From Escherichia coli (GTDB lineage: Bacteria > Pseudomonadota > Gammaproteobacteria > Enterobacterales > Enterobacteriaceae): a stretch of 64,000 bases of DNA. Below the pieces are notes generated by a model. The model was not told the DNA's origin, did no database searches, and saw nothing but the letters and a program-made list of their open reading frames with translations. Positions within the stretch are counted from its first letter, which is position 1. Each line of letters opens with the position of its first letter. The DNA lies in NCBI RefSeq assembly GCF_011045215.1, contig NZ_CP049201.1. One strand, written 5' to 3'. Made by a program: the position numbers and the translations under genes. This document shows positions 5,859 to 41,288 of the stretch, piece by piece.

Positions 5859-6266
5859 GCTTGTCCCCGTTTTTTCTTCCTTTGCTAATAATGTCTTTTT
5901 CGCTCCGTCATCATAACGAAAATCAAACCGCTCAGGTAAAGAAGTGAAAATATTTTGAGTTAATTCTTAAGCTATGATACAAATCAGGCGTGTTCAACTA
6001 CCGAGGACAATTATCATCCGCGATGACGAGAAGCAACACTGCGGATAATTGTAATATTATGGACAATTTGTTCAGGACGTTATTTTCTACATTTACCCAT
6101 CTTCGTACCTCATCCACTATCTTGCTCGTAGGTGAGCAGCACTGGCGCAACGCGCTTTAGTCCTTTCTTCTGCCAAAGCTTGCCCTATACGCGGGGCTTG
6201 ACCACTTTACTTTGGTTTCGCTGAATTAAGCGAAAATTAGAATAATTCTCTTGCAGGAGAAGGACA

Positions 6267-6632: not shown

Positions 6633-6948
6633 ATGGGTTCACGCCGCCTGGCTGGCATTGGCAATCGTGCTGGAAATCGTTGCTAACGTCTTTTTGAAAT
6701 TTTCTGACGGCTTTCGTCGCAAAATATTTGGCTTGCTCTCCCTGGCGGCGGTGCTGGCTGCCTTTAGTGCGCTTTCTCAGGCCGTTAAAGGGATCGACTT
6801 GTCTGTCGCTTATGCATTGTGGGGCGGGTTTGGTATTGCCGCCACGTTAGCCGCAGGTTGGATCTTGTTTGGTCAACGGTTAAATCGTAAAGGCTGGATT
6901 GGCCTGGTCTTGCTGTTGGCTGGAATGATCATGGTGAAACTTGCCTGA
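6619..6948 (+). CDS. mdtI: SMR-family spermidine exporter subunit MdtI
   Basis: 109-aa 4-TM SMR protein translationally coupled to mdtJ. Confidence 0.9.
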
Positions 6949-6954
6949 TGAAGA

Positions 6955-6982
6955 CGCTGCCCGCGCTGTCGGGCAGCGTTTG
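6955..6982. terminator. rho-independent terminator, mdtI/ydgD convergent gap
   Basis: 10-bp stem acgctgcccg/cgggcagcgt with 6-nt loop followed by ttt. Confidence 0.6.
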
Positions 6983-6986
6983 AACA

Positions 6987-7808
6987 TTATTTTTGCGACA
7001 GTTGATCCAGCTTGTCGCGAAAACCGGTAACAGAAATGGCCCGGTTATCGGCGCGCCAGCGATCTTTCGCGGCAGGAGCCGAACTTTGCACCCCAATTAA
7101 TTGCCAGCCGTCATCGGTATGCAACATCAGAGGCGAACCGCTGTCACCCGGCAAGGTATCGCACTGATGTGACATCACCGACGTTTGCGCCCAGCCAGTC
7201 ACTTCACAGTTTTGATGACTGTACAACGTATCGAGATGATCTTCAGGGTATCCTGCCTGAGTCACTTTACGACCTGCCGCTTTTAATGCGGCGGTAAGCG
7301 CGGCTTTATCTCCCTCAAATAACGGCAACGGCGTAATGCCAGAAGGGGGATTACGTAGCACAATCAATCCGAAGTCCCACGGCGCGGCTGCGGGAGGTAC
7401 AATCCAACCATCCCCATCTGCTTTTAACCGCTTTCCCAGTGTCGGATCAACGCGGCCTTCTATGTCGTGGATGTCATAGCGCCAAAGACCTTTATTTGAC
7501 ACAAAACGCAGCGCCACTGCTTTATCGGCTTTACCCTTTGGAGGTGTCAATAAACAGTGTCCTGCCGTTAATGCCAGATTGGGTGCAATCAGCGTCGCCG
7601 TACATAAATTGCCGCTGGCCGTTTCCAGTTGCCCAACCGCATCCCACGGTGATTGGGTCGTGTCATTCACTGGCACACGATCATCATGACCAAAAAACAG
7701 GGTGCTGACCTCATCGTTTGCCGATTTGGCAATGTCTGGTTTATCTGCAAACACAAAAGCAGACGTCAAACTAATTGCACCCAACACTACAGCAATGGTT
7801 GTACGCAT
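6987..7808 (-). CDS. ydgD: trypsin-like serine protease YdgD
   Basis: 273 aa with signal peptide and catalytic motifs TAGHC and GDSGSPL. Confidence 0.88.
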
Positions 7809-8083
7809 ATCACACTCTGGTGGGTAATTATGATTATTAAAAGCAAACCCTCATAAATACTATAGACGGGACGGGATGAAAGTGGGAGTAAAATCAGATA
7901 ACTACAGTCAGGAAAGATAAAAACGGGCGGCAATCAGTGCGCATAAAATAAGGATGATCAGAATGAACTCAAAGCGATAACGGCCCACCATACTACCCTC
8001 CGCTAAAGGCGGTGCTAAACGTTACCCGCTTAGCACCGTAATTTTCAGGCGCGAGGGGGCGCGCCAGCATTACTGTTGAAAAC

Positions 8084-8392
8084 TTACGCTGCGGGTTGTG
8101 CAGCAGGTTTTGCCGGTTGCTGATGGCTGTGTTTCTTGGCGTGTTTCTTCGCTGCCTGCGCTTTTTGTTCAGGGGCTTTCTGTTCAGCTTTCGTATTTTT
8201 ATGATGCTTTTTAGCCGCCTGCGCTTTCTGGGCAGGTGCTGCTTTATGCTGTTTTTTATGATGTGTAGTTTTCGCCGGCGCTGCTTTGGTGGTCGTCGCA
8301 GTCGGAGCAGGTGTGGTCGCAGTCTCTGCAGCAAAGGCGGCAGAAGACAGACCCATAGCAGCGGCAACAACCAGAGCTAATACTTTTTTCAT
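8084..8392 (-). CDS. asr: acid shock protein Asr
   Basis: 102-aa product from the internal ATG with GAGGG RBS; signal peptide then low-complexity Lys/Ala/His-rich repeats. Confidence 0.85.
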
Positions 8393-8815
8393 TGTCATAC
8401 CCTCAATTTGTTTTTTCATTTAACCCCACTGCGGGGCCGTTGAAATAACTATATCCCTGGGAATGGCAGACTTCCGTGAGTGGTTGGTTTCAGCGTGTAA
8501 CGATATGTACAAACGCTGAATAAATTACAGCGTTGATAATAACGTATTGTGACTTAAGGGAAATTTAGCTACCAATAATAGTAGTCTTGATCGGGTTAAC
8601 TATTTTACTACTTACAAAGCGGTAGAATAACTGCGCATCAGTAATAAATGACACACAGCAAAATGAATCCGTTTATTTGGGTACTTATAATCCTGATGAC
8701 GCTAGACGCGCTGCGGGAATTGGCTGGCGCTTCGTCTATTTTAGGATGGCTATTAACGTTGGTTTGAGCAGGCAATAAGTCCGGACGGGTATTTACCGCA
8801 GTCCGGACTTATTTT

Positions 8816-10069
8816 TCAGGCGTGCAGACGACGATGCAAACGCGTCCCGACCAGCAGAGCAATGACCAGCATCAGAGCAATAAATGCGCCGACGCCGTTC
8901 CAGCCATAGTTATGCCAGAAAACACCACCCAGCGTCCCGGCAATACTCGACCCCAGATAGTAACTGAACAGATACAGCGAGGAGGCCTGGCCTTTAGCGC
9001 GTTTTGCGCGGGGGCCGATCCAGCTGCTGGCTACTGAGTGGGCTGCGAAGAATCCGGCTGAGAAGAGTAACATTCCGGCAAAGATCAGCCACAGCGAGCT
9101 GAATAAGGTCATCAGTAAACCAAACAGCATAACCCCCGTCGAAAACAACATCACTGGACCACGCCCATAGCGGGTGGTCATGGTTCCGGCTTTGGGTGAG
9201 CTCCATGTACCGGTCAAATAAGCCAGCGATAATAAGCCAACCACGGCCTGACTGACATGCCAGGGGGAGAGCATCAACCGATAGCCGATGTAATTAAACA
9301 GCGTGACGAACGACCCCATCAGCAAAAAGCCTTCTGCGAACAATAACGGTAATCCCCGGTCACGCCAGTGCAGACGAAAGTTGATAAACAACGACTTAGG
9401 TCGCAGCGAAGTCGGGCGAAAATGGCGTGATTCCGGGAGGATTTTCCAGAACATCAACGCCGAGGCTAGCGCGAAACAACCGATTGCCGCCAGCGCAATT
9501 CGCCAGTTGAAAAAGTCCGTGAAGACACCGCTAATTAAGCGTCCGCTCATGCCGCCAATTGAGTTGCCGCTGATATACAACCCCATCGAAAAGGCCACGA
9601 AACTGGGGTGGATTTCCTCGCTAAGATAAGTCATGCCAACAGCTGCCACGCCACTTAACGAAAGCCCAATCAAGGCGCGCATAATCAAAATGCCGTGCCA
9701 GCTGGTCATCATTGTCGAAAGTAACGTACAAATGGAGGCCAACAGTAGCGCCGTGACCATCACTGGTTTGCGACCAATGGCATCGGATAGCGGACCAGTA
9801 AACAGCAAACCGATAGCCAACATCGCCGTGGAAATGGACAGTGAAATACTACTGTTCGCGGGCGTTAAGCCAAACTCCTGCGAAAGCACCGGAAGGATAG
9901 GCTGCACACAATAGAGAAGTGCAAATGTTGCCAGTCCGGCAGAGAACAGCGCCAGGGTGACGCGCATAAATTGCGGCGTACCGCGTTTAATAAATTGATT
10001 TGGCTGAGAAATGCTTTGCTTGTCAGTGTCGCTTGCCGGAGCGCCATCAACAGTTGTAGTACGGCTCAC
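8816..10069 (-). CDS. ynfM: MFS transporter YnfM
   Basis: 417-aa 12-TM major facilitator protein divergent from the LysR gene ynfL. Confidence 0.88.
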   Translation of the reverse strand: MSRTTTVDGAPASDTDKQSISQPNQFIKRGTPQFMRVTLALFSAGLATFALLYCVQPILPVLSQEFGLTPANSSISLSISTAMLAIGLLFTGPLSDAIGRKPVMVTALLLASICTLLSTMMTSWHGILIMRALIGLSLSGVAAVGMTYLSEEIHPSFVAFSMGLYISGNSIGGMSGRLISGVFTDFFNWRIALAAIGCFALASALMFWKILPESRHFRPTSLRPKSLFINFRLHWRDRGLPLLFAEGFLLMGSFVTLFNYIGYRLMLSPWHVSQAVVGLLSLAYLTGTWSSPKAGTMTTRYGRGPVMLFSTGVMLFGLLMTLFSSLWLIFAGMLLFSAGFFAAHSVASSWIGPRAKRAKGQASSLYLFSYYLGSSIAGTLGGVFWHNYGWNGVGAFIALMLVIALLVGTRLHRRLHA

Positions 10070-15303: not shown

Positions 15304-16158
15304 TTAACCTGCAATAGCCACTCCTACCGTCATGTGCAGGCCATAAAAGAGCACACGCCCGATCATCTCACCGCCAAGAATGAGGATTAACCCCAGAATA
15401 AGTCCGGCAACGTGAGGTTCACGGCGACGTATGAGCGGACAAAGCCAGCATCCTAGACCTGCACATAACAATACCACACGCCAGACCTGTAAGGAGGCGT
15501 AATCTGGTACCAGTGCGCTGGCTTGTTGCACGGATGAGTGAATAGACGACAGAGACAAACCTTGCAGCACAATCACCCCGGCACAAGCGATCAGCGCCAG
15601 AACGCTAATGATGGCAAATGGTGTGGTATTAAATGTAACGCGGGCTGCCCGCAGAATTGCGGCAGCAAGTATTGGACCACTCAACAATACCGTCAGGAAG
15701 AAAGCCAGCGTAGTGTAACCGTTATGCCAGGTTGGCACAGTGTCGATTTGATACACGCAGGTCATCATCCAGACGAAAATGACGCCGAGCGCCATGCTGA
15801 CAAGTAACCAGAGTTTCCCCAACGCTTGCGGCATTTTACCGATGACCGCCACCAGCCACCATAGTCCGCCAACGGCAAAAAATATGGAACCGGCAGCAAT
15901 CTCGTTACTCAGACCAGAAGCTCCGATTCGATTCAGCGAGTTAAACGCCCGCAGTGGCGATCCCAGGTGCATGACAGAGGCAATAAACCCGATGCCCATC
16001 AACAGCCAGAGGAAAAACATGCCACGAACAATGTGCTGACGGTCTGCGTCATTTTTGGCGGCGAACCAGCCAATTCCGCTAACAATCAGCGCGCCTACTA
16101 CGCATTGACCCAATACGGTAAAGATAACCAGTGGCCATTCATGCCATCCATTTCCCAT
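15304..16158 (-). CDS. ynfH: DMSO reductase-type membrane anchor subunit YnfH
   Basis: 284-aa DmsC-family polytopic protein starting MGNGWHEW...; the longer upstream in-frame ORF overlaps ynfG and is rejected. Confidence 0.85.
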   Translation of the reverse strand: MGNGWHEWPLVIFTVLGQCVVGALIVSGIGWFAAKNDADRQHIVRGMFFLWLLMGIGFIASVMHLGSPLRAFNSLNRIGASGLSNEIAAGSIFFAVGGLWWLVAVIGKMPQALGKLWLLVSMALGVIFVWMMTCVYQIDTVPTWHNGYTTLAFFLTVLLSGPILAAAILRAARVTFNTTPFAIISVLALIACAGVIVLQGLSLSSIHSSVQQASALVPDYASLQVWRVVLLCAGLGCWLCPLIRRREPHVAGLILGLILILGGEMIGRVLFYGLHMTVGVAIAG

Positions 16159-16787: not shown

Positions 16788-19214
16788 TTAAACCTTTTCG
16801 ATCTGGACAAGATTGCTGTGCGACGGGTTTCCCTTTGCCAGCGGTGAAGGGCGGTGAGAGGTCAGAATATTAATACTGCCGCCGTGATCGACCCGGTCAC
16901 CAAACATATCCGCTTTAAGCCACGCACCTTGCCCGATGGCGGTAACGCCAGGCAGAATACGCGGAGTCACTTTTGCGGCAATCAGCATTTCTCCATTATT
17001 GTTAAATACCCGCACGGTATCGCCATGACGGATACCGCGAGCCTGAGCATCAATGGGGTTGATCCACACCTCTTGTGGGCAGGCCTGCTGTAACACATCA
17101 ATATTGCCGTAGCTGGAGTGGGTACGCGCTTTGTAGTGGAAGCCCGTTAACTGCAGTGGATAGGTTTTCCGCAGGGGATCGTCCCAGCCATCAAAACCTG
17201 GGGTATACGCAGGAAGGGGATGAATAATTTCATCTTTTTTCAATTCCCAGGTATCTGCAATCTTCGCCAGTCGTTCAGAATAAATTTCGATTTTCCCCGA
17301 AGGTGTTTTCAACGGGTTTGCCTGTGGATCTTCACGGAATGCGCGGAAAGCGACGTAGTGTTCTTCCGGGCATTTTTTCTTAAAGATCCCGGTCGTTTTC
17401 ATCTCCTCGTAGTCGGGCATCTCAGGGTTACGTTCCTTCGTTTTCGCATGGAGATATTTGATCCATTCATGCTGACTGCGACCTTCAGTAAAGGTTTGAT
17501 AAACGTCCGGTCCTAAGCGGTTGGCGACTTCACTCAGCATCCAGTAGATGGGTTTGCGTTCAAATTTTGCTGAGGTTGCGGGTTGGGCGAGGATCACATA
17601 GCCCATATTCCCTGCAGATTCATGAGAGATAAGGTCTTCTTGCTCTGTTGGCATCAGGTCGGGCAACAGGATATCGCAATACTTAGCCGAGGCCGTCATG
17701 AAGTGGTCAATGCCAACAATCATCTCGCACTTGCTGTCATCCTGAAGCACCTCATGGGTGTGATTGATGTCGCCATGTTGATTGATCAATGTGTTACTGG
17801 CGTAGCACCATAAAAACTTGATGGGGACATCCAGTTTTTCTTTTCCACGAACACCATCACGGGTCGCGGTCATTTCCGTACCATGGTCGATGGCATCTGT
17901 CCATGTAAAGACGGAAATCTGCGTTTTAACAGGATTCTCGAGCATCGGGAACCATTCTACCCCCAGATCCCAGCTACCTTCGCGTACGCCTGAGTTGCCG
18001 CCGTTTATGCCGACGTTACCGGTGAGAACGGAAAGCATGGCAATAGCGCGGGATGTTTGTTCGCCGTTGGAGTGTCGTTGTGGCCCCCAACCCTGACAAA
18101 TATAAGCAGGTTTTGCTGAACCGATCTCTCGTGCCAACTGGATAATTTTTTCTGCCGGGATGCTGGTGATTTTTGCTGCCCATTCCGGCGTTTTAGCTAT
18201 GCCGTCAGGCCCTTCGCCCAGAATATAGGCTTTATAATGCGCGTTACGTGGTGCGTTGGCGGGAAGCGTTTTTTCATCGTAACCAACACAATATTTGTCG
18301 AGAAATGGCTGATCGACCATGTTTTCAGTAATCAGTACCCAGGCAATCGCACAGGCCAGTGCGCCATCGGTGCCAGGGCGAATGGGCAGCCATTCATCTT
18401 CACGTCCGGCAGCTGTGTCGTTATAACGTGGATCGATGACGATCATGCGTGCGTTTGAACGTTCGCGGGCTTGCTCGACGTAGTAAGTGACACCACCACC
18501 GCTCATCCGCGTTTCTGCCGGGTTATTTCCGAACATAACGACCAGTTTCGTATTGGCGATATCATCCGGGCTGTTGCCATCATTGGCACCGAACATATAA
18601 CTCATTGCGGCACTGATCTGTGCGGTACTGTAGCTGCCATAGCGACTGAGAAAACCACCGCAAGAGTTCATCAGACGGTACGGGACGTTTGAGTTGGTGA
18701 TGTTTCCGCCATCTACACCTGTTCCGTACAGGACATGTACAGCCTCATTGCCGTAATCTTTTAGGATCTGCCGAAGATTATCACTGATGGTATCCAGGGC
18801 TTCGTCCCAACTTATCCGTTCAAATTTACCTTCACCGCGCTTGCCGACGCGCTTCATGGGATATTTCAACCTATCAGGATGATTCATCCGTCGGCGGATA
18901 GAGCGCCCGCGTAAACACGCTCGAACCTGATGATTACCGTAGACGTCGTCACCTGTCGTATCAGACTCCACCCAGTACACGGTGTCATCTTTCACATGCA
19001 AACGTAACAGACAGCGGCTCCCGCAGTTAACGGTGCAGGAACTCCAGACCGCTTTCTCTTCTACCGGAGCCTCTGCCGCCCGGACCATTTGGGAAAATGG
19101 CAGAGTGAAAGCACTGCTTGCCAGCGCAAGACTGCCAAGTGCGGAGGTTTTCATCAGACTTCTACGGCTGATTTCAGCCTTCATGAGCGCCTCTGTGGTA
19201 TGGATTTTCATCAT
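16788..19214 (-). CDS. ynfF: Tat-exported molybdopterin oxidoreductase catalytic subunit YnfF
   Basis: 808 aa with twin-arginine signal (SRRSLMK) and DmsA-type Cys cluster; paralogue of ynfE. Confidence 0.9.
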   Translation of the reverse strand: MMKIHTTEALMKAEISRRSLMKTSALGSLALASSAFTLPFSQMVRAAEAPVEEKAVWSSCTVNCGSRCLLRLHVKDDTVYWVESDTTGDDVYGNHQVRACLRGRSIRRRMNHPDRLKYPMKRVGKRGEGKFERISWDEALDTISDNLRQILKDYGNEAVHVLYGTGVDGGNITNSNVPYRLMNSCGGFLSRYGSYSTAQISAAMSYMFGANDGNSPDDIANTKLVVMFGNNPAETRMSGGGVTYYVEQARERSNARMIVIDPRYNDTAAGREDEWLPIRPGTDGALACAIAWVLITENMVDQPFLDKYCVGYDEKTLPANAPRNAHYKAYILGEGPDGIAKTPEWAAKITSIPAEKIIQLAREIGSAKPAYICQGWGPQRHSNGEQTSRAIAMLSVLTGNVGINGGNSGVREGSWDLGVEWFPMLENPVKTQISVFTWTDAIDHGTEMTATRDGVRGKEKLDVPIKFLWCYASNTLINQHGDINHTHEVLQDDSKCEMIVGIDHFMTASAKYCDILLPDLMPTEQEDLISHESAGNMGYVILAQPATSAKFERKPIYWMLSEVANRLGPDVYQTFTEGRSQHEWIKYLHAKTKERNPEMPDYEEMKTTGIFKKKCPEEHYVAFRAFREDPQANPLKTPSGKIEIYSERLAKIADTWELKKDEIIHPLPAYTPGFDGWDDPLRKTYPLQLTGFHYKARTHSSYGNIDVLQQACPQEVWINPIDAQARGIRHGDTVRVFNNNGEMLIAAKVTPRILPGVTAIGQGAWLKADMFGDRVDHGGSINILTSHRPSPLAKGNPSHSNLVQIEKV

Positions 19215-31807: not shown

Positions 31808-31865
31808 TAAAAACGGCGGCAGAGCAGTCACGGAGTAAAACTGATACCGCCAAACGTCACCAGAA
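31808..31865 (-). ncRNA. dicF: DicF small regulatory RNA
   Basis: minus-strand sequence UUUCUGGUGACGUUUGGCGGUAUCAGUUUUACUCCGUGACUGCUCUGCCGCC followed by a U-run matches DicF (53 nt plus terminator tail). Confidence 0.88.
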
Positions 31866-34247: not shown

Positions 34248-35193
34248 ACGCCCACTGGTTATAAACACGCAGCTGGCAATGAAAATCGGCTTAAACGAAG
34301 CCATTGTTTTGCAACAACTGCACTACTGGTTGAGAGATACCAACTCCGGTATGGAATGTGATGGTGTTCGCTGGATTTATAACACAACGGAACAATGGCT
34401 GGAACAGTTCCCATTCTGGTCAGAGTCAACGTTAAAACGCGCGTTTGCAAGTCTGAAAACGCTGGGGCTTTTGCGTTGTGAAAAGCTCAATAAATCAAAG
34501 CGCGATATGACCAATTTCTACACGATCAACTATGGGAGCGAGCTTTTAGATGGTGGCAAATTGAACGAATCCATCGGTTCAAAATGCGCCGCTCCATCAG
34601 GTCAAAATGACACGATGGAAGAGGTCAAAATGAAACGCTCCATTGGTTCAAAACGACCCAATGTCATCGGGTCAAAATGGCCTGATGATCTTACAGAGAA
34701 TACAACAGAGATTACTACAGAGAATAAAAACACTTTTCGTCCGGAAGCTTCGCAACCGGACCCGCAGACGACTGAACAGGATTTTTTAACCCGGAACCCC
34801 GACGCGGTTGTGTTTAGTGTGAAAAAACGCCAGTGGGGTAGCAGGGAGGATTTGGCGTGTGCGCAGTGGATTTGGGGGCGGATCGTGAACCTTTACGAAC
34901 AGGCTGCCAGCGACGATGGAGAGATCATGCGACCAAAAGAGCCTAACTGGACAGCCTGGGCCAATGACGTGCGCACAATGCGGATGCTGGATGGCAGAAG
35001 CCACAGACAAATTTGCGAAATGTTTGGTCGGGTACAGCGGGATCCATTCTGGGTAAAAAACATCATGAGCCCGTCAAAACTCCGCGAAAAATGGGACGAA
35101 CTGGTCATCCGCCTGGGACGTTCACCTGTACAGCGTTGTGTGAATCATATTTCTGAACCGGATACAGAAATTCCGCCTGGTTTCAGAGGATAA
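34228..35193 (+). CDS. replication initiator, lambda O-like
   Basis: 321 aa with N-terminal DNA-binding-type region; gene contains five regularly spaced iterons, as in lambda O/ori. Confidence 0.75.
   Translation: MSLLFAERPLVINTQLAMKIGLNEAIVLQQLHYWLRDTNSGMECDGVRWIYNTTEQWLEQFPFWSESTLKRAFASLKTLGLLRCEKLNKSKRDMTNFYTINYGSELLDGGKLNESIGSKCAAPSGQNDTMEEVKMKRSIGSKRPNVIGSKWPDDLTENTTEITTENKNTFRPEASQPDPQTTEQDFLTRNPDAVVFSVKKRQWGSREDLACAQWIWGRIVNLYEQAASDDGEIMRPKEPNWTAWANDVRTMRMLDGRSHRQICEMFGRVQRDPFWVKNIMSPSKLREKWDELVIRLGRSPVQRCVNHISEPDTEIPPGFRG
34575..34680. repeat. phage replication origin iterons (5 direct repeats of GGTCAAAATG-like motif, about 23-bp period)
   Basis: copies at about 34576, 34600, 34623, 34645 and 34669 inside the O-like gene, producing repeated IGSK peptide motifs. 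Confidence 0.75.
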
Positions 35194-35233
35194 GTTTTGA
35201 TTTCAGGTCATGAGGTAATTTTAAGGGGGACTT

Positions 35234-35635
35234 GTGGCAAAAGTTTTTACACAAGAAGAGCGGGAAAAAATTAAAGGGCAGGTGGTGGAACTCGTGCGCC
35301 AGAGCGGTCGTGAGACGTTACGGCAACTGGAAGCTAAAACAGGTGCGACTAGATATCTGATGAGCGTTCTTGCCAGAGAGCTGGTAGCCAGTGGCGATGT
35401 ATACAACTCCGGCTACGGGTTATTCCCGTCTGAACAGGCGCGTAAGGACTGGCAAAACGCCCGCAAAAAACTATCGAGGGCAAAGGTGAAGAAAACAGCT
35501 GTGGTTGATCCGGACCTTATCTGGTCGTTACCTGATGGAGAAATACGTCGCTACGACAGTCGCCTAAACATAATCTGTCGCGAGTGCCGGATGAGTGAAG
35601 TTATGCAGCGCATACTGGCATTTTATCAGGGATAA
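35234..35635 (+). CDS. hypothetical phage protein
   Basis: 133-aa ORF with GTG start preceded by AAGGGGGA RBS; follows the O-like gene. Confidence 0.65.
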   Translation: MAKVFTQEEREKIKGQVVELVRQSGRETLRQLEAKTGATRYLMSVLARELVASGDVYNSGYGLFPSEQARKDWQNARKKLSRAKVKKTAVVDPDLIWSLPDGEIRRYDSRLNIICRECRMSEVMQRILAFYQG

Positions 35636-35831
35636 TGTTAGGTATTTTAGACGTTACTAGATTAAAAAGCATTAGTTCAGGAGTGAATTGACATTCTCAT
35701 TTTTCATGGCACAGGGTAGATCTGGCGTGGTTGTCCGCTTTGTGCCAGAAGCGGACATAGCAGGTGCCAGATGCATTTGTTATTCTTCATTGAATTGAGC
35801 AGTATCCTTAACAGGAACTCTGAATACATAA

Positions 35832-36470
35832 ATGAAGATGAAAAACATGTCTGAAGTGTTGACCCAAGAAAAGCTTATTTTTGTTGCCCAGAGACTAAAG
35901 GCCCTCGCGCAGTCAGGCCTGACCTATTCAAAAGACGTCTTTGACAAGGAACGCTATGAAGCCTTGCGTGAAATTGCCGCTGGACTGCTGAGTTCGCAGT
36001 TTGATATTAGCCGCAATGATTTGTTTCATGTATCGGAAACGGGTTACGCGACGCCCAAAACAGATGTGCGTGCGTTTATCCTGCGTAATAATCGTATTCT
36101 GATGGTGAAAGAGGCTGCAGATGGATTATGGAGTCTTCCTGGCGGATGGGCAGATGTTGGAGATACACCTTCTGAAGCTGTGCGTCGAGAGGTCGAAGAA
36201 GAAACCGGATTAAAAGTCAGAGTGACTAAACTATTGGGAGTTTGGGATCGTAATCTTCACGGCCATCCGCCTTTACCCTGGCATGTTTACAAGCTGATTT
36301 TTCTCTGTGAAGAAGTAGGTGGCAGCCTGTCAATCAGCCATGAGTCACTCGATGCTGATTTTTTTGATGTCAACGACCTGCCTGAATTGTCGCTTTCAAG
36401 AATTGTGCCTGAGCAGATTGCTGTCAGCCTGAGAGTAGCGAAAGGTGATGAAAAAACATGGTTTGATTAA
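35832..36470 (+). CDS. Nudix hydrolase with N-terminal extension domain
   Basis: 212 aa; Nudix-box core GGWADVGDTPSEAVRREVEEETGL. Confidence 0.85.
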   Translation: MKMKNMSEVLTQEKLIFVAQRLKALAQSGLTYSKDVFDKERYEALREIAAGLLSSQFDISRNDLFHVSETGYATPKTDVRAFILRNNRILMVKEAADGLWSLPGGWADVGDTPSEAVRREVEEETGLKVRVTKLLGVWDRNLHGHPPLPWHVYKLIFLCEEVGGSLSISHESLDADFFDVNDLPELSLSRIVPEQIAVSLRVAKGDEKTWFD

Positions 36471-36493
36471 CTTTCTTCTGCAACCATTAAGGA

Positions 36494-37138
36494 ATGGCAA
36501 TGATATTCAACGCTAAGGGTTTTTTATTCGATATGGACGGTACGCTGGTTGATTCAACAGCCGTAGTGGAAAACGTCTGGAGAGATTTTTGTGCAGAATA
36601 CGGTCTTGATTCTCAGGCTGTGATTGCTTACGCACACGGGCGGCAAACGATTGATACACTAACGCATTTTATTGGTGCAGGTGAGAAAACCAATAAAATC
36701 GCGGCCTCACTCGAAGAGGTTGAAATCAACACGACAGAAGGCGTTACTGAAGTAAAAGGGGCCGCTGCACTCTTATCAAAACTGCCACCGGATAGCTGGG
36801 CACTTGTCACTTCTGCAGGCAGAATGCTTGCCGAAAACAGGATGAAAGCGGCTAATCTCCCCTTACCCAGAGTAATGGTGTGTGCAGAAGATGTAATGAC
36901 GGGAAAACCAAGTCCCGAGGGTTACATCAAAGCAGCTTTGGCTTTGGGCCTTGAGCCTGGTGAATGCGTGGTATTTGAGGATGCATCTGCGGGTATAAAA
37001 GCAGGGCTGGCAAGTGGAGCTTCGGTAATAGCTGTTCAGCCTGACGCTCTGGGATCATCTGAAGCCCATGCCGTCAGCGAACTGTCTGACATTATGGTCA
37101 AGATTTCCGGAGAACGTTTCAATATCATCTGTGGTTAA
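36494..37138 (+). CDS. HAD-superfamily phosphatase (beta-phosphoglucomutase-like subfamily)
   Basis: 214 aa; motif I FDMDGTLVDS, motif III lysine region and downstream acidic motif (EDASAG); 24 bp after the Nudix gene. Confidence 0.85.
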   Translation: MAMIFNAKGFLFDMDGTLVDSTAVVENVWRDFCAEYGLDSQAVIAYAHGRQTIDTLTHFIGAGEKTNKIAASLEEVEINTTEGVTEVKGAAALLSKLPPDSWALVTSAGRMLAENRMKAANLPLPRVMVCAEDVMTGKPSPEGYIKAALALGLEPGECVVFEDASAGIKAGLASGASVIAVQPDALGSSEAHAVSELSDIMVKISGERFNIICG

Positions 37139-37386
37139 TCACGTTACACAATACGCATCAATGGACGCTGAGTAGTTCGCGAGTTTTAAACTTCCAACGT
37201 CCGCTTTTCGCTCAAAGCGGACTAGAAGGTTAGCTTGTATCGGACTTTGCGTATTAAATGACTAGTGGTTGAGCCCCATTTCCACAGAAAAAATCAGAGA
37301 AACTATACCCAATAGTTGTATTGAATCACTGACGAGACAGCCTCATATTCATCAGGACTGGTGTACGTCCAATACAGGAGGTTGTG

Positions 37387-37476
37387 GTGCTGGTTCTCAA
37401 ATGTGCGCTGGCTATTACGGCTGTAATGGCGATTTATTGTCTTGCTATTGTTCTTATGGATCGCCTTTCTGACTGA
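37387..37476 (+). CDS. candidate small hydrophobic membrane peptide (about 29 aa), possible type I toxin
   Basis: consensus AGGAGG at 37376-37381, 5 nt before GTG; encodes (M)LVLKCALAITAVMAIYCLAIVLMDRLSD, one TM helix with charged tail; a different frame of the same region gives the 67-aa Cys/Gly-rich ORF in the track. Confidence 0.3.
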   Translation: MLVLKCALAITAVMAIYCLAIVLMDRLSD

Positions 37477-37687
37477 TTTCATATTGGCGAGGTAACGGTA
37501 GTTAAGTAGAATGGCTGCGGGTGCTTGAGGCTATCTGCCTCGGGCATGAACACCAACGGCAGATAGAGAAAAGCCCCAGTTAACATTACGCGTCCTGCAA
37601 GACGCTTAACATTAATCTGAGGCCAATTTCATGCTAGACACATGTAGGTTAGCCTCTTACGTGCCGAAAGGCAAGGAGAAGCAGGCT

Positions 37688-37843
37688 ATGAAGCAGCAAA
37701 AGGCGATGTTAATCGCCCTGATCGTCATCTGTTTAACCGTCATAGTGACGGCACTGGTAACGAGGAAAGACCTCTGCGAGGTACGAATCCGAACCGGCCA
37801 GACGGAGGTCGCTGTCTTCACAGCTTACGAACCTGAGGAGTAA
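37688..37843 (+). CDS. hok: Hok/Gef-family type I toxin
   Basis: 51 aa MKQQKAMLIALIVICLTVIVTALVTRKDLCEVRIRTGQTEVAVFTAYEPEE, typical Hok; in-frame upstream ATG at 37631 could act as a mok-like leader. Confidence 0.88.
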   Translation: MKQQKAMLIALIVICLTVIVTALVTRKDLCEVRIRTGQTEVAVFTAYEPEE

Positions 37844-37911
37844 GAGACCCGGCGAGGGATAAATCCCTCGCCACCTCTGATGTGGCAGGCATCCTCAACG
37901 CACCCGCACTT

Positions 37912-37940
37912 AACCCGCTTCGGCGGGTTTTTGTTTTTAT
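37912..37940 (+). terminator. rho-independent terminator of hok transcript
   Basis: stem cccgc/gcggg with ttcg loop followed by tttttgttttt. Confidence 0.75.
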
Positions 37941-38059
37941 TTTCAACGCGTTTGAAGTTCTGGACGGTGCCGGAATAGAATCAAAAATACTTAAGTAGCG
38001 CGCAGGGATAAGAGGGATGGTCCCTTAAAGGGGAGAGCTAATTATCCGGAAGGATTCTG

Positions 38060-38311
38060 ATGATGAACATCGAAGAACTGCGTAAAATTTTTTGTGAAGA
38101 TGGCCTCTATGCTGTGTGCGTTGAAAATGGAAACATTGTTAGTCATTACCGCATTCTGTGTTTGCGAAAGAATGGGGCTGCGTTAATTAATTTTATGGAT
38201 GCTCGGGTCACGGACGGATTTATCTTGCGCGAAGGTGAGTTTGTCACTTCATTACAGGCACTGAAAGAGATCGGAATAAAAGCAGGCTTTTCAGCTTTTG
38301 CAGAAGAATAA
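38060..38311 (+). CDS. small phage protein in the Rem position (83 aa)
   Basis: 83-aa ORF between hok and the DUF968 gene, same order as hokD-rem-ydfU in Qin. Confidence 0.6.
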   Translation: MMNIEELRKIFCEDGLYAVCVENGNIVSHYRILCLRKNGAALINFMDARVTDGFILREGEFVTSLQALKEIGIKAGFSAFAEE

Positions 38312-38377
38312 ACTCATCTACAATCTTGCGCGGGGCTGAACTCCCGCTGAGTAACACCGTGCCACCGGAGAAAACCG

Positions 38378-38656
38378 ATGGCACGCAACGTAAAATATTA
38401 CAATTCTGATAATTCGCCCGTTCTTGCCTGCACGCACGAGCGGTATTCTCACGCATTCAAGTCTGAATGGTTCCAGCACCCTCCATGCACTGAAGAGCAG
38501 GCTGAATGGATAATTCAGTGTTACCGCAGGCGCGGATACGAGGTTAAGAAAGCCCTTAGTCTCGACTACCGTCACTGGATAATCTCAGTCAGATTGCCTT
38601 ACTCCGAACGCCCACCGCGTCCGTCCCGTACATTCCAGCAACGCATCTGGAGGTAA
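38378..38656 (+). CDS. hypothetical phage protein
   Basis: 92-aa ORF abutting the start of the DUF968 gene. Confidence 0.55.
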   Translation: MARNVKYYNSDNSPVLACTHERYSHAFKSEWFQHPPCTEEQAEWIIQCYRRRGYEVKKALSLDYRHWIISVRLPYSERPPRPSRTFQQRIWR

Positions 38657-39707: not shown

Positions 39708-39724
39708 TTTTGTGGAGAAAGTTG

Positions 39725-40069
39725 ATGCGTGATATGTATGAAGTTTTAGACCGCTGGGGAGCGTGGGCTGCAGCAGATAACAGTGGTGTGGACTGGCAGC
39801 CGATAGCAGCAGGCTTTAAGGGGCTTTTACCTCATGGTAAAAAAATACGCCTTCAGTGTGATGATGATGAAGGCATCATGATAGACGGCTGTGTTGCCCG
39901 CCTGTGTAAGTATAAACCAGACGAATATGAGCTGATCATTGCTCACTTCGTTATAGGTATTTCACTGCGTTCTATTGCGAAGAGACGCAGATGCTCAGAT
40001 GGAACAATCCGGAAGCAATTGCAGACTGCGTTAGGTTTCATTAATGGGGTTATGTACATGCTCAAGTAA
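39725..40069 (+). CDS. Q: late-gene antiterminator Q (933W/82-type)
   Basis: 114 aa from ATG with GGAG RBS (MRDMYEVLDRWGAWAA...), N-terminus resembles small Q antiterminators. Confidence 0.8.
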   Translation: MRDMYEVLDRWGAWAAADNSGVDWQPIAAGFKGLLPHGKKIRLQCDDDEGIMIDGCVARLCKYKPDEYELIIAHFVIGISLRSIAKRRRCSDGTIRKQLQTALGFINGVMYMLK

Positions 40070-41288
40070 TATTTGGCATTAATTTAAATAAAATACCGAT
40101 GATGCCTATGAATGTAGGCATCCATGCTAGTGATAATAAACTGTCAAGCACCTTATGACAAAAATCCTCATTGTCATTTAATTTTTTAATAGCCTCTTCT
40201 AAGCTCTCTTTAAGATCGCTGGTGTCATCCTTTATTCTATATCTTAATTGTCCAAAAAGTATTTCTTTAGAGTGTGAAATACGAGCAAGTTGTTTTTTTT
40301 GTGACACAATCATTGCAGATGTTATTATTGCTGTGATAATCAATCCAATTAAAGCAATAATCCAATCAGCTTTTGTTGTTAATTTGAAAATAGCAATTGA
40401 ACCAGCTAGTGAAATAGGTATTGCAAGAGCTTTGTTAGAAATTTCTGAAATTATTTTTGACAGTTTTTCTGAGTAATCGAGTTCAGCATCAACAACTTCT
40501 TTCCTTGCTTTATGAAAAGAAAATGCCGATATATAAGCAGCTAAGTTGTTCGTATAAAGTTCGCATATGAAATCCCACTTGTTAATTAACTCGACAAAGG
40601 AATTTCCATTTTTATTAACATACTCAATAACTGTGTTTCTGAAAGTGTTAATCTTTTCAATGTGATGGGCATCAGTAGTAGCTTCACTACTTACTAATGT
40701 TTTAACTAACTGAGTATTTACTGTTTTATCATTAAAAATTTCTTCTGTAATATTTGTTTCAATTACAGCAGAAGAAGATTTAGACTCTGAGTTTAAAATA
40801 AAGACTAAACGATAAAATGTACCTTTGCTATCTTTTTTTATATCATGGAAATGAGCAAGCATGGAAAGAGCATTGATTAGCTCACAAATGTCCTCAATTT
40901 TTTGGATATAAGAAGGTTTTGGTGTTTCTAATGAATAGAAATCATCCTCTATAATATAGAAATACTCTGGCATTATGCCTTTCTTGAGCGTGTTTATTTT
41001 TACAAACTCGTTTTTATTTTTATAAAAACGATTCGCACTTCCTTGTGAAATTTTAAACGAGTATGTAAGAAAATTTCCCTTTTCAGGAAAGTCTTCATAA
41101 TCATAAATTAAATGACCATCCACCTCTATTTCGTCAGCTGTACCAGCTTGAAAAGTAGGGTTCAAAATTCTTTTGAACAATGATTTTACGTCTGCATTAT
41201 AAGCTATACGCGCAGAAAACTTAGCCCCGTCAAAATGAGGATAGCTTGATAATCTATACAGATTAACTATTATACTAAAATCATTCAT
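40062..41288 (-). CDS. candidate defence effector: protein with soluble N-terminal domain and C-terminal transmembrane helices
   Basis: 408 aa, AT-rich; hydrophobic segments ALAIPISLAGSIAIFKL, WIIALIGLIITAIITSAMIVS and WMPTFIGIIGILFKL; start overlaps upstream gene stop (ATGA). Confidence 0.75.
   Translation of the reverse strand: MNDFSIIVNLYRLSSYPHFDGAKFSARIAYNADVKSLFKRILNPTFQAGTADEIEVDGHLIYDYEDFPEKGNFLTYSFKISQGSANRFYKNKNEFVKINTLKKGIMPEYFYIIEDDFYSLETPKPSYIQKIEDICELINALSMLAHFHDIKKDSKGTFYRLVFILNSESKSSSAVIETNITEEIFNDKTVNTQLVKTLVSSEATTDAHHIEKINTFRNTVIEYVNKNGNSFVELINKWDFICELYTNNLAAYISAFSFHKARKEVVDAELDYSEKLSKIISEISNKALAIPISLAGSIAIFKLTTKADWIIALIGLIITAIITSAMIVSQKKQLARISHSKEILFGQLRYRIKDDTSDLKESLEEAIKKLNDNEDFCHKVLDSLLSLAWMPTFIGIIGILFKLMPNIT

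Follow-up and report, generated by a model that had tools for sequence, protein, structure and literature searches.

The question raised by this locus is how a gene for a Nudix hydrolase and a gene for a HAD phosphatase came to lie side by side in an Escherichia coli prophage, and what the pair might do there. The window, by which we mean the whole stretch of 64,000 nucleotides analyzed here (contig NZ_CP049201.1, assembly GCF_011045215.1), begins with E. coli chromosome (pntAB to rspB) and continues into a Qin-like lambdoid prophage that adjoins rspB/ynfA. The two genes occupy the plus strand of this prophage at 35832..36470 (an open reading frame (ORF) of 212 amino acids (aa) with Nudix_N and NUDIX domains) and at 36494..37138 (214 aa, a HAD-IA phosphatase similar to YfbT/HxpA and Gpp1), with a DUF977 gene on one side and hokD on the other. 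A first-pass annotation, made from the sequence alone, had described them as a cargo operon and had proposed nucleotide-derived substrates and a part in phage counter-defence. We found that they belong to a discrete unit of 1,490 bp (35733-37222) in the early-right region of the prophage. As we reconstruct it, this unit would be an exchangeable cassette, or 'moron', made up of a type A boundary site, a 90-nt leader, the two-gene operon and a type B boundary site. The explanation as a whole, covering the exchangeable cassette, its chemistry, its role and its mobility, has in our judgment about even chances of being right.

The main value of the locus lies in movement, since a single unit that is at least 99% identical was found in five hotspots, with its limits on two short palindromes. 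This apparent site-bounded exchange is a more interesting lead than the enzyme pair, which alone is a modest addition to the known prophage cargo and which brings into E. coli phages a Nudix subfamily described as Gram-positive-only (PMC3655063).

One cassette in five mobile contexts

The cassette was present in 21 of 5,426 complete E. coli genomes, every copy being at least 99% identical. It occupies five mobile contexts: the Qin-like slot, from the DUF977 gene to hokD; the locus between G and FI of the P2-like phages P24C9 and 10W, which is the fun(Z) locus of P2 and at which the reference P2 lacks the cassette; the region between A and Q of another P2-like contig, where P2 holds tin and old; the far end of a lambdoid prophage, past the tail-fibre genes; and an integrase island, in which the HAD gene has an internal deletion. 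Decayed copies were also seen, namely in phage 11W and as an IS3-truncated copy that retains HAD alone. A comparison of these copies indicates that the unit has moved recently, and nearly unchanged, among at least five mobile contexts. Virulent phages in the collections searched did not contain it, and when viral contigs were scanned with a Nudix profile to detect remoter relatives borne by phages, the 100% identical cassette alone was returned.

Homologous prophages bear other genes at exactly this slot, in line with the earlier description of the pair as non-essential cargo, and flanks that are 86-98% identical enclose five other cargos. Presence or absence between conserved flanks is what defines a moron, and the Nudix-HAD pair is a newly recognised member of the phage morons. 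The statement that it sits 'where Qin carries relBE' was correct to within a few hundred bases: in the Qin prophage of K-12, relBE stands just upstream of hokD, and flxA stands one step further. Around flxA and part of ydfV, by relBE-hokD, there are degenerate A-like (5982-6005) and B-like (6973-6996) copies of the palindromes, and the orientation of this flxA cassette relative to hokD is opposite to that of the cassette in the window.

The operon layout was also borne out. The two genes are separated by a short junction (36471..36499, plus strand; a gap of 23-29 nt) with an AAGGA Shine-Dalgarno sequence, whose AGGA lies six bases ahead of the RefSeq start of the HAD gene at 36500 (212 aa), and the sequence around the pair (35636-35831 and 37139-37630) is non-coding, as had been reported. 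Translation of the Nudix gene probably begins with the ATG at 35847, giving 207 aa, because the orthologues are 207 aa long and all align on that ATG.

The pair itself appears to be much older than the spread of this copy. Solo orthologues of each gene, with 60-84% identity, lie in unrelated neighbourhoods on the chromosomes of other Enterobacterales, and two diverged paired versions were found, one of them chromosomal (L269, 89/85% identity) and the other on an integrase island adjoining mutY-yggX-mltC (L005, 80/72% identity, with an equally short operon junction). Between the window and L005, nonsynonymous divergence (dN) was 0.13 and 0.21, while synonymous divergence (dS) was saturated. The persistence of the pair at these identities, with low dN and saturated dS, indicates that both genes have been kept intact, side by side and under purifying selection for a long time.

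Proposed exchange at two boundary palindromes

The limits of the cassette are 24-nt palindromes with identical 8-bp inverted arms, GTCCGCTT and AAGCGGAC, and different 6-bp cores. The type A site (35733..35756, plus strand) reads GTCCGCTT-TGTGCCAG-AAGCGGAC and has the asymmetric core GTGCCA. The type B site (37199..37222, plus strand) reads GTCCGCTT-TTCGCTCA-AAGCGGAC and has the core TCGCTC, which on the opposite strand (GAGCGA) resembles the core of A. As single-stranded DNA, the A site folds at -14.9 kcal/mol (z = -4.85 against shuffled sequences) and the B site at -9.6 kcal/mol (z = -3.17). Neither hairpin, including that of the B site, has a T run behind it, and an Rfam search of 35000-38500 assigned the palindromes to no known RNA family at E <= 1.

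In alignments with four foreign contexts, the A site formed the left limit and the B site the right limit of the 99% identical block, and at both sites the inner arms were invariant and the outer arms polymorphic. Where the cargo was constant and the backbones differed, homology covered 35733-37223; where the backbone was constant and the cargo differed, it ran to 35756 and began again from 37184-37199. The only sequence common to the two comparisons is that of the two sites. The phage-backbone spacer on the left (35636..35732) is homologous in prophages with other cargo, as far as 35756, and is missing wherever the cassette lies in a P2-like phage, an island or another context. The leader ahead of the Nudix gene (35757..35846, plus strand) moves along with the cassette, and its first ~40 nt after the A site are common to the window and to a cassette with a solo Nudix orthologue (L007), which likewise lies between such sites. 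Because the outer arm and the loop base next to it track the backbone, whereas the loop base beside the inner arm tracks the cargo, the aligned sequences place the exchange point within the 6-bp core or the inner arm.

The same sites recur with other cargos. A search of viral contigs for the two arms around any 8-nt loop gave at least 120 loci, and a scan of one genome per species likewise lists at least 120; neither set is a random sample. Among the viral matches listed, the loops were non-random (approximately 41 of type A, 22 of type B and 11 of a GC-rich third type), and pairing each A site with the next B site yielded 29 distinct cassettes among the matches listed. Their cargos include a type III-A retron, DarTG, an NsnA-like DUF262 protein, the candidates PDC-S39 and PDC-S49, and a SIR2/ThsA-like protein with an adenosine deaminase and an XTP/dITP diphosphatase, and other cassettes with these sites carry GNAT, VOC, SDR, NmrA or LysR genes or uncharacterised proteins. 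The orientation of the cargo relative to the sites is not fixed. In the slot of the window, the A site precedes at least six different cargos. P2 itself (NC_001895) has fun(Z) between an A site at 15335-15358 (GTCCACTC-TGTGCCAA-AAGCGGAC, two mismatches) and a degenerate B site at 17432-17455, and downstream of this B site the backbone matches that of P24C9, which has Nudix-HAD in place of fun(Z).

Two other loci (L059 and L085) hold, in the slot of the window, a TetR-like regulator, an adenosine deaminase, an XTP/dITP diphosphatase similar to HAM1/RdgB and a SIR2/ThsA-like protein. This four-gene cargo, which was not recognised as a named system, looks from its gene content like a nucleotide-centred candidate defence system.

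In the scan of one genome per species, the exact type A pattern (22 specified bases) gave its at least 120 loci against ~0.03 expected by chance in 298 Gb; exact arms were needed for a match, and the scan is therefore uninformative on arm variation. The matches fall in alpha-, beta- and gammaproteobacteria, among them many Enterobacterales as well as Bradyrhizobium, Rhizobium, Microvirga, Rhodospirillum, Hyphomicrobiales, Nitrosospira, Amphritea and further taxa; some genomes have several copies, though at most ~5 per genome among the matches listed. Of 121 cases, 33 had, 11-31 nt upstream, a further palindrome that shares the arms but has a different core, which is of the TCGCTC type in Enterobacterales and of the ACCCCC or GGGTCA type in Alphaproteobacteria. 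Overall, the cores form few classes, mainly GTGCCA and TCGCTC, with the common pattern G-N-G-C-N-A. When the 859 ORFs neighbouring the sites were clustered, the recurrent families were LysR, SDR, GNAT, MFS and TetR.

A conserved stretch of ~45 nt (gac gac ccg gca rcg ccg ggg agc cgg agg ... cca tca g) stands repeatedly ahead of type A sites in Mixta and Candidatus Pantoea deserta (L164, L166, L184 and L185), and could belong to a more extensive repeated unit.

How, then, might the cassettes be swapped? We propose that they would be replaced by a double exchange within the A and B sites, since shared arms around different 6-bp cores make a layout that would allow replacement and not excision. 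Replacement fits better than insertion because no empty, single-site slot was found, either in viral contigs for the Qin-like backbone and the P2 backbone between G and FI (0 contigs, with strict patterns that variants could escape) or in the E. coli genomes (0 of 5,426). Whether a site-directed process lies behind the exchange is, on these sequence comparisons, a question we find evenly balanced, and the layout could be explained either by a dedicated recombinase or by short-homology recombination at palindromes similar to repetitive extragenic palindromic (REP) units and bacterial interspersed mosaic elements (BIMEs).

The second of these possibilities, to which we give substantial weight although it falls short of an even chance, holds that the palindromes are REP/BIME-like units, perhaps serving as mRNA stabilisers or insulators, and that the swaps occur by short-homology recombination (Red/RecET or RecA) between the 24-nt repeats. 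Phages of the lambdoid and Rac/Qin types have recombination systems able to work on short homologies, and breakpoints inside identical sequence are indistinguishable from homology-driven exchange. The sites resemble REP/BIME units in being short, intergenic, imperfect palindromes, often in inverted pairs with a short linker, here of 11-31 nt. An IS110-family element is also inserted into an A site, and some IS110-family elements target repeated palindromes. On the other hand, a REP family is usually confined to one species or genus, whereas the type A pattern is exact across three proteobacterial classes at a low copy number among the matches listed, coincides with the limits of exchanged blocks and has no Rfam match. 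The few core classes with their shared pattern, the presence of two different cores on the same arms in every cassette, and the retention of the outer arm by the backbone in every informative junction likewise speak against simple REP units.

Two observations in turn weigh against a dedicated site-directed system. No recombinase was recurrent among the clustered neighbouring ORFs, nor was a recombinase gene consistently near the sites, and the breakpoints are placed only as 'not in the outer arm', from few junctions, since the inner arms are identical and permit no finer placement. We regard as unlikely the most far-reaching version of our proposal, in which A and B would be core sites of a trans-acting recombination system that swaps small cassettes among temperate phages (in both P2 variable regions and in lambdoid slots), islands and chromosomes across the Proteobacteria, a natural counterpart of cassette exchange with two heterospecific sites, and in which the Nudix-HAD cargo would protect lysogens by destroying a nucleotide-activated precursor required by incoming phages.

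The IS110 insertion just mentioned was seen in L064 and L086, in which a gene for an IS110-family RNA-guided transposase (171 bits, cut-off 140) lies inside an A site, between GTCCGCTTTGTGCCAA and ATATAGTC, upstream of a cassette with XRE-cupin and GNAT genes at a Qin-like slot. This suggests that the palindrome itself is a target of insertion sequences.

Among known systems, the closest parallels in layout are the modules of tyrosine recombinases, which have inverted arms around a 6-8 bp asymmetric core, as the sites in the window also do. Acinetobacter pdif modules and engineered heterospecific lox exchange are units bounded by such core sites, and they share with our cassettes the same arms, incompatible cores around a replaceable unit and the lack of an empty slot. 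The likeness is one of layout only, as the arm sequence is unrelated to dif, lox and FRT. Integron cassettes, including brc167, are likewise small units (mostly of 1-4 genes) with structured boundary sites; in places such units follow one another head to tail, any mobilisation would act in trans, and their spectrum of cargo is similar (GNAT, VOC, Nudix, toxin-antitoxin and defence genes). They differ in that the sites described here have no attC consensus, no intI nearby, 24 nt in which the sequence and not just the structure is conserved, and two cores per cassette, and in that the cargo has no fixed orientation relative to them. An integron gene cassette was accordingly considered and rejected: there are no attC R''/R' boxes (GTTRRRY), only 63 of 121 A sites have [A/G]TT behind them, and no integrase is recurrent. 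Pairing of the attC kind outside the B-A doublets was rejected as well, since the flanks, inspected by eye, are not complementary.

It was already known that the variable Z and TO regions of P2-like phages hold horizontally acquired, non-essential genes and anti-phage systems (PMC3091744, PMC9122126, 10.64898/2026.02.27.708500). The analysis of P2/P4 hotspots states that the recombination by which defence systems are swapped 'still need to be elucidated', and it makes no mention of hairpins, palindromes or inverted repeats (10.64898/2026.02.27.708500). The palindrome sequence was not found in the literature by sub-string or keyword, and earlier P2 work (2004) may cover part of it. The palindromes described here, which also bound a retron, DarTG, SIR2 systems and P2 fun(Z), provide a concrete and testable candidate for the process that swaps defence systems. 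They also offer a sequence handle with which to find new cargo, including defence systems, in phages and in the chromosomes of many Proteobacteria. If it holds up, a site-bounded exchange common to lambdoid phages, P2-like phages and distant Proteobacteria would be a new variant of cassette systems.

The two enzymes and their predicted chemistry

The quoted catalytic motifs of the two proteins were confirmed (REVEEETG spans residues 119-126 in the Nudix ORF, and DMDGT residues 13-17 in the HAD ORF), and the family matches are far beyond chance. Pfam assigned NUDIX (1.1e-18, residues 77-184) and Nudix_N (1.2e-17, residues 14-61) to the Nudix protein, which matches the Bacillus cereus CDP-Chase structure PDB 3Q1P at 7e-50, with ~50% identity over residues 19-204; at this identity, a fold of the 3Q1P type is likely. 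The protein is also clearly akin to 3O8S from Streptococcus suis and to 4HFQ, the UDP-X diphosphatase of Streptococcus pneumoniae. The profile searches that had been recommended to settle its subfamily thus pointed to the CDP-Chase/UDP-X diphosphatases, and not to the NudE, NudF or NAD diphosphatase types, and by sequence we class it as a member of that subfamily.

The diagnostic motifs agree with this placement. The HLH motif of the subfamily, G-U-X-Xar-X2-D-X-Xar-D-X-[E/D]-R-Xar (Duong-Ly et al. 2013, PMC3655063), was located by script as GLTYSKDVFDKERY at residues 29-42, and the YXTP hinge (YATP, residues 72-75) and the C-terminal LPXLS (LPELS, residues 183-187) are both invariant in 13 enterobacterial relatives. 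The Nudix signature of the subfamily, G-Xar-Xsm-[E/D]-U-X2-[S/T]-X2-E-X3-K-E-U-X-E-E-X-G-U (PMC3655063), fails in its strict form at residues 105-127 (GWADVGDTPSEAVRREVEEETGL) and fits once Arg is permitted for the consensus Lys, Arg being the residue of the general Nudix box at this position. The length of 207 aa (counted from 35847) and the helical N-terminal domain followed by a Nudix domain fit the 200-210 aa of the subfamily. CDP-Chase (3Q1P/3Q4I) and SP_1669 (4HFQ) thus share with the window protein the two-domain architecture (PF12535 and PF00293, 207-212 aa), the HLH, YXTP and LPXLS motifs and, with Arg allowed for Lys, the variant signature. The window gene differs in being paired with a HAD phosphatase, in being phage-borne, in its occurrence in Enterobacterales and in the Arg for the signature Lys. 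Its relatives number in the thousands and are mostly from Enterobacterales.

The HAD protein matches HAD_2 over its full length (2.3e-22), as well as the Hydrolase family, and has the four motifs DMDGT (I, residues 13-17), ALVTS (II, 103), GKPSP (III, 137) and FEDASAG (IV, 161). With 61.3 bits against a cut-off of 29.4 for TIGR01509 (HAD-SF-IA-v3), it falls within subfamily IA, for which these four motifs and a C1 cap between motifs I and II are diagnostic. Its best NCBIfam match is NF008610 (YfbT/HxpA; 191.2 bits over residues 6-185) and its best PDB match is 2QLT, the yeast glycerol-3-phosphatase Gpp1 (1.6e-22). With both of these it shares the HAD-IA fold and all four catalytic motifs. Since 191 bits lies below the equivalog cut-off of 282, an orthologue of YfbT is excluded, and by its sequence the protein is a paralogue of the sugar- or polyol-phosphate type. 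Outside the mobile-cassette group, its closest named relatives are actinobacterial 'sugar phosphatases' with 50-55% identity.

Taken together, these assignments suggest a two-step reaction. The Nudix enzyme would split a nucleoside-diphosphate-X (NDP-X) into a nucleoside monophosphate and X-phosphate, and the HAD enzyme would then dephosphorylate X-phosphate, so that an activated precursor would be irreversibly destroyed. We retain from the first-pass annotation the general idea of a diphosphatase followed by a phosphatase as reasonable, and by analogy with the relatives we consider such two-step hydrolysis moderately probable. By the same analogy, NDP-X is most probably a sugar or alcohol linked to a pyrimidine nucleotide (UDP- or CDP-X). 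The subfamily is described as forming asymmetric homodimers, and its known activities are hydrolysis of CDP-choline, weak hydrolysis of UDP-sugars and UDP-MurNAc, and 3'-5' RNA exonuclease activity (PMC3655063). Some features of these relatives count against our scheme: their kcat/Km on UDP-X is only 400-2,900 per M per s (PMC3655063), the S. suis protein 3O8S had no good substrate in a screen of 74 compounds that included ADP-ribose (PMC5158307), and the exonuclease activity plays no part in the model. UDP-X or CDP-X is therefore named as a substrate by analogy only, the activities of the subfamily being weak or absent.

The annotation had suggested ADP-ribose, NAD-derived signals or modified nucleotides as possible substrates, and counter-defence or manipulation of the nucleotide pool as possible roles. 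Under counter-defence, the enzymes would destroy a nucleotide-derived immune signal or its precursor (ADP-ribose derivatives, the NAD-derived signals of Thoeris, cyclic nucleotides) early in infection. In the lambdoid prophage the cassette does form part of the rightward early region and is oriented like the replication genes, so that early transcription would be expected, and relatives of the Nudix protein carry the JGI label 'ADP-ribose pyrophosphatase YjhB'. YfbT-type HAD enzymes of E. coli reportedly accept ribose-5-phosphate. The YjhB label is, however, a generic COG name without experimental backing, the characterised relatives prefer CDP-choline or UDP-X, and the substrate screen of 3O8S gave no support. 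The equivalog scores are also far below their cut-offs (NudE, 19 bits against 169; NAD(+) diphosphatase, 27.9 against 158; bifunctional NMNAT/Nudix, 23-28 against 354-449), and no result favoured ADP-ribose, NAD-derived compounds or cyclic nucleotides as substrates. Furthermore, the cassette is absent from the virulent phages searched, occupies lysogenic-conversion and exclusion loci in P2-like phages, has defence systems as alternative occupants of its slot and persists in islands and chromosomes outside phages, and anti-defence genes are rare in P2 hotspots (28 of 1,511 elements; 10.64898/2026.02.27.708500). With no positive evidence for it, we consider counter-defence very improbable.

Possible roles in the lysogen and the surrounding prophage

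A drain on an activated precursor, if expressed from the prophage, would alter the host in such a way that other phages are excluded; it might, for instance, deplete a nucleotide-sugar on which the modification of phage DNA or a surface receptor depends. We favour exclusion of other phages as the role of the pair, tentatively, because the P2 loci that it occupies are conversion and exclusion loci, because its slot-mates are largely defence systems and because a NUDIX integron cassette blocks P1. In P2, fun(Z) blocks T5, and fun(Z), tin and old are genes of lysogenic conversion and exclusion. The cassette is like the P2 conversion morons and defence hotspots in lying exactly at the fun(Z) locus in P24C9 and 10W and in the TO region elsewhere, and it differs from them in occurring also in lambdoid prophages and islands. 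The integron cassette brc167.2, described as a NUDIX hydrolase/nucleotidase, confers resistance to P1 (10.1101/2024.07.02.601719).

Several findings pull away from a role in exclusion. A moron is expected to have its own promoter and factor-independent terminator, but a consensus scan called no sigma-70 promoter ahead of the Nudix gene and detected no terminator behind the HAD gene, and expression in the lysogen is therefore an assumption. The upstream TTGACA that had been pointed out is present at 35688-35693, but it stands in the backbone spacer outside the cassette and has no matching -10 hexamer, and the scan called no promoter there. PADLOC-DB 2.0 gave the Nudix domain 36.8 bits to PDC-S07 and returned nothing for HAD, a result that says little because PADLOC likewise misses P2 Fun(Z), whose function in exclusion is proven. 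The pair was not found in the accessible part of the supplementary text of Rousset 2022 on P2/P4 hotspot systems. In addition, the chromosomal orthologues and the L269 pair lie among ordinary genes of small metabolism, and since cassettes with the same sites also carry GNAT, VOC, SDR and LysR genes, sharing a slot with defence systems is weak evidence for defence.

These last points bear on a plainer alternative, that of accessory metabolism, in which the enzymes would clean up or salvage a stray or toxic nucleotide-linked metabolite to the metabolic benefit of the lysogen, with no part in conflict. Solo (60-84%) and paired (89/85%) orthologues stand beside LysR, GST, SDR, MFS, GGACT and sugar-uptake genes, the Nudix gene on a Pantoea plasmid adjoins a GGACT-family gene and an annotated pyrimidine deaminase, and many same-site cassettes, including those with NmrA, have metabolic-looking content. 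Nudix hydrolases are classic house-cleaning enzymes by the title of the 1996 Bessman review, and known defence systems gave no match. The annotation had itself allowed that the genes might prove to be widespread housekeeping orthologues with known substrates. Chromosomal orthologues with 60-89% identity do exist in other Enterobacterales, which agrees with one half of this description only. What argues against plain metabolism is the near-unchanged copy across five phage and island hotspots in a species from which it is otherwise absent, a pattern typical of conflict cargo, together with the largely defensive slot-mates in phages and the finding that metabolic-looking integron cassettes (GNAT, NUDIX) protect against phages (10.1101/2024.07.02.601719). 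We consider plain metabolism rather doubtful as the whole explanation, and rank exclusion slightly above house-cleaning, with the chromosomal orthologues and metabolic cargos keeping the two close.

Two unrelated contexts have a GGACT gene (similar to gamma-glutamylcyclotransferase) directly upstream of the Nudix gene, L003 (5340-7169) and L269 (4982-6639). In L003, a plasmid of Pantoea sp. At-9b, the Nudix gene is followed by one annotated as 'diaminohydroxyphosphoribosylaminopyrimidine deaminase'. From their annotation, these neighbours may hint at a pyrimidine-related pathway. In the P2-like contig with the cassette between A and Q (L141), three uncharacterised genes encoding 377, 142 and 215 aa lie directly downstream of Nudix-HAD (6724-8945) within this P2 defence hotspot, and PADLOC matched none of them.

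To the right of the cassette, the phage-backbone spacer (37223..37518) is followed by the backbone hokD/sok type I toxin-antitoxin locus (37519..37843, plus strand), identified by an Rfam sok match of 115 bits and by the annotation of hokD in a near-identical prophage. Within the spacer, between the B site and hok/sok, an ORF of 30 codons (37384-37476, plus strand) directly behind a consensus AGGAGG encodes a very hydrophobic peptide, VVLVLKCALAITAVMAIYCLAIVLMDRLSD, which by its sequence resembles a small membrane toxin. RefSeq does not annotate the ORF in the near-identical prophage, and NCBIfam offers no family for it; a related reading frame occurs in L029.

ARAGORN found no tRNA genes in the window, and the near-identical prophage of SCU-125 (NZ_CP051700) has tRNA-Ile and tRNA-Arg after the antiterminator gene. 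Two Rfam matches in the whole window reached gathering scores, the DicF small RNA at 31814-31865 (minus strand, 72.5 bits) and the sok match at 37519-37693 (plus strand). Further downstream, the GC content falls to 0.28-0.32 at 40100-41000, just beyond the ORF at 39710-40069, in the part of the prophage after the DUF968 gene, and this stretch looks like another foreign insert.

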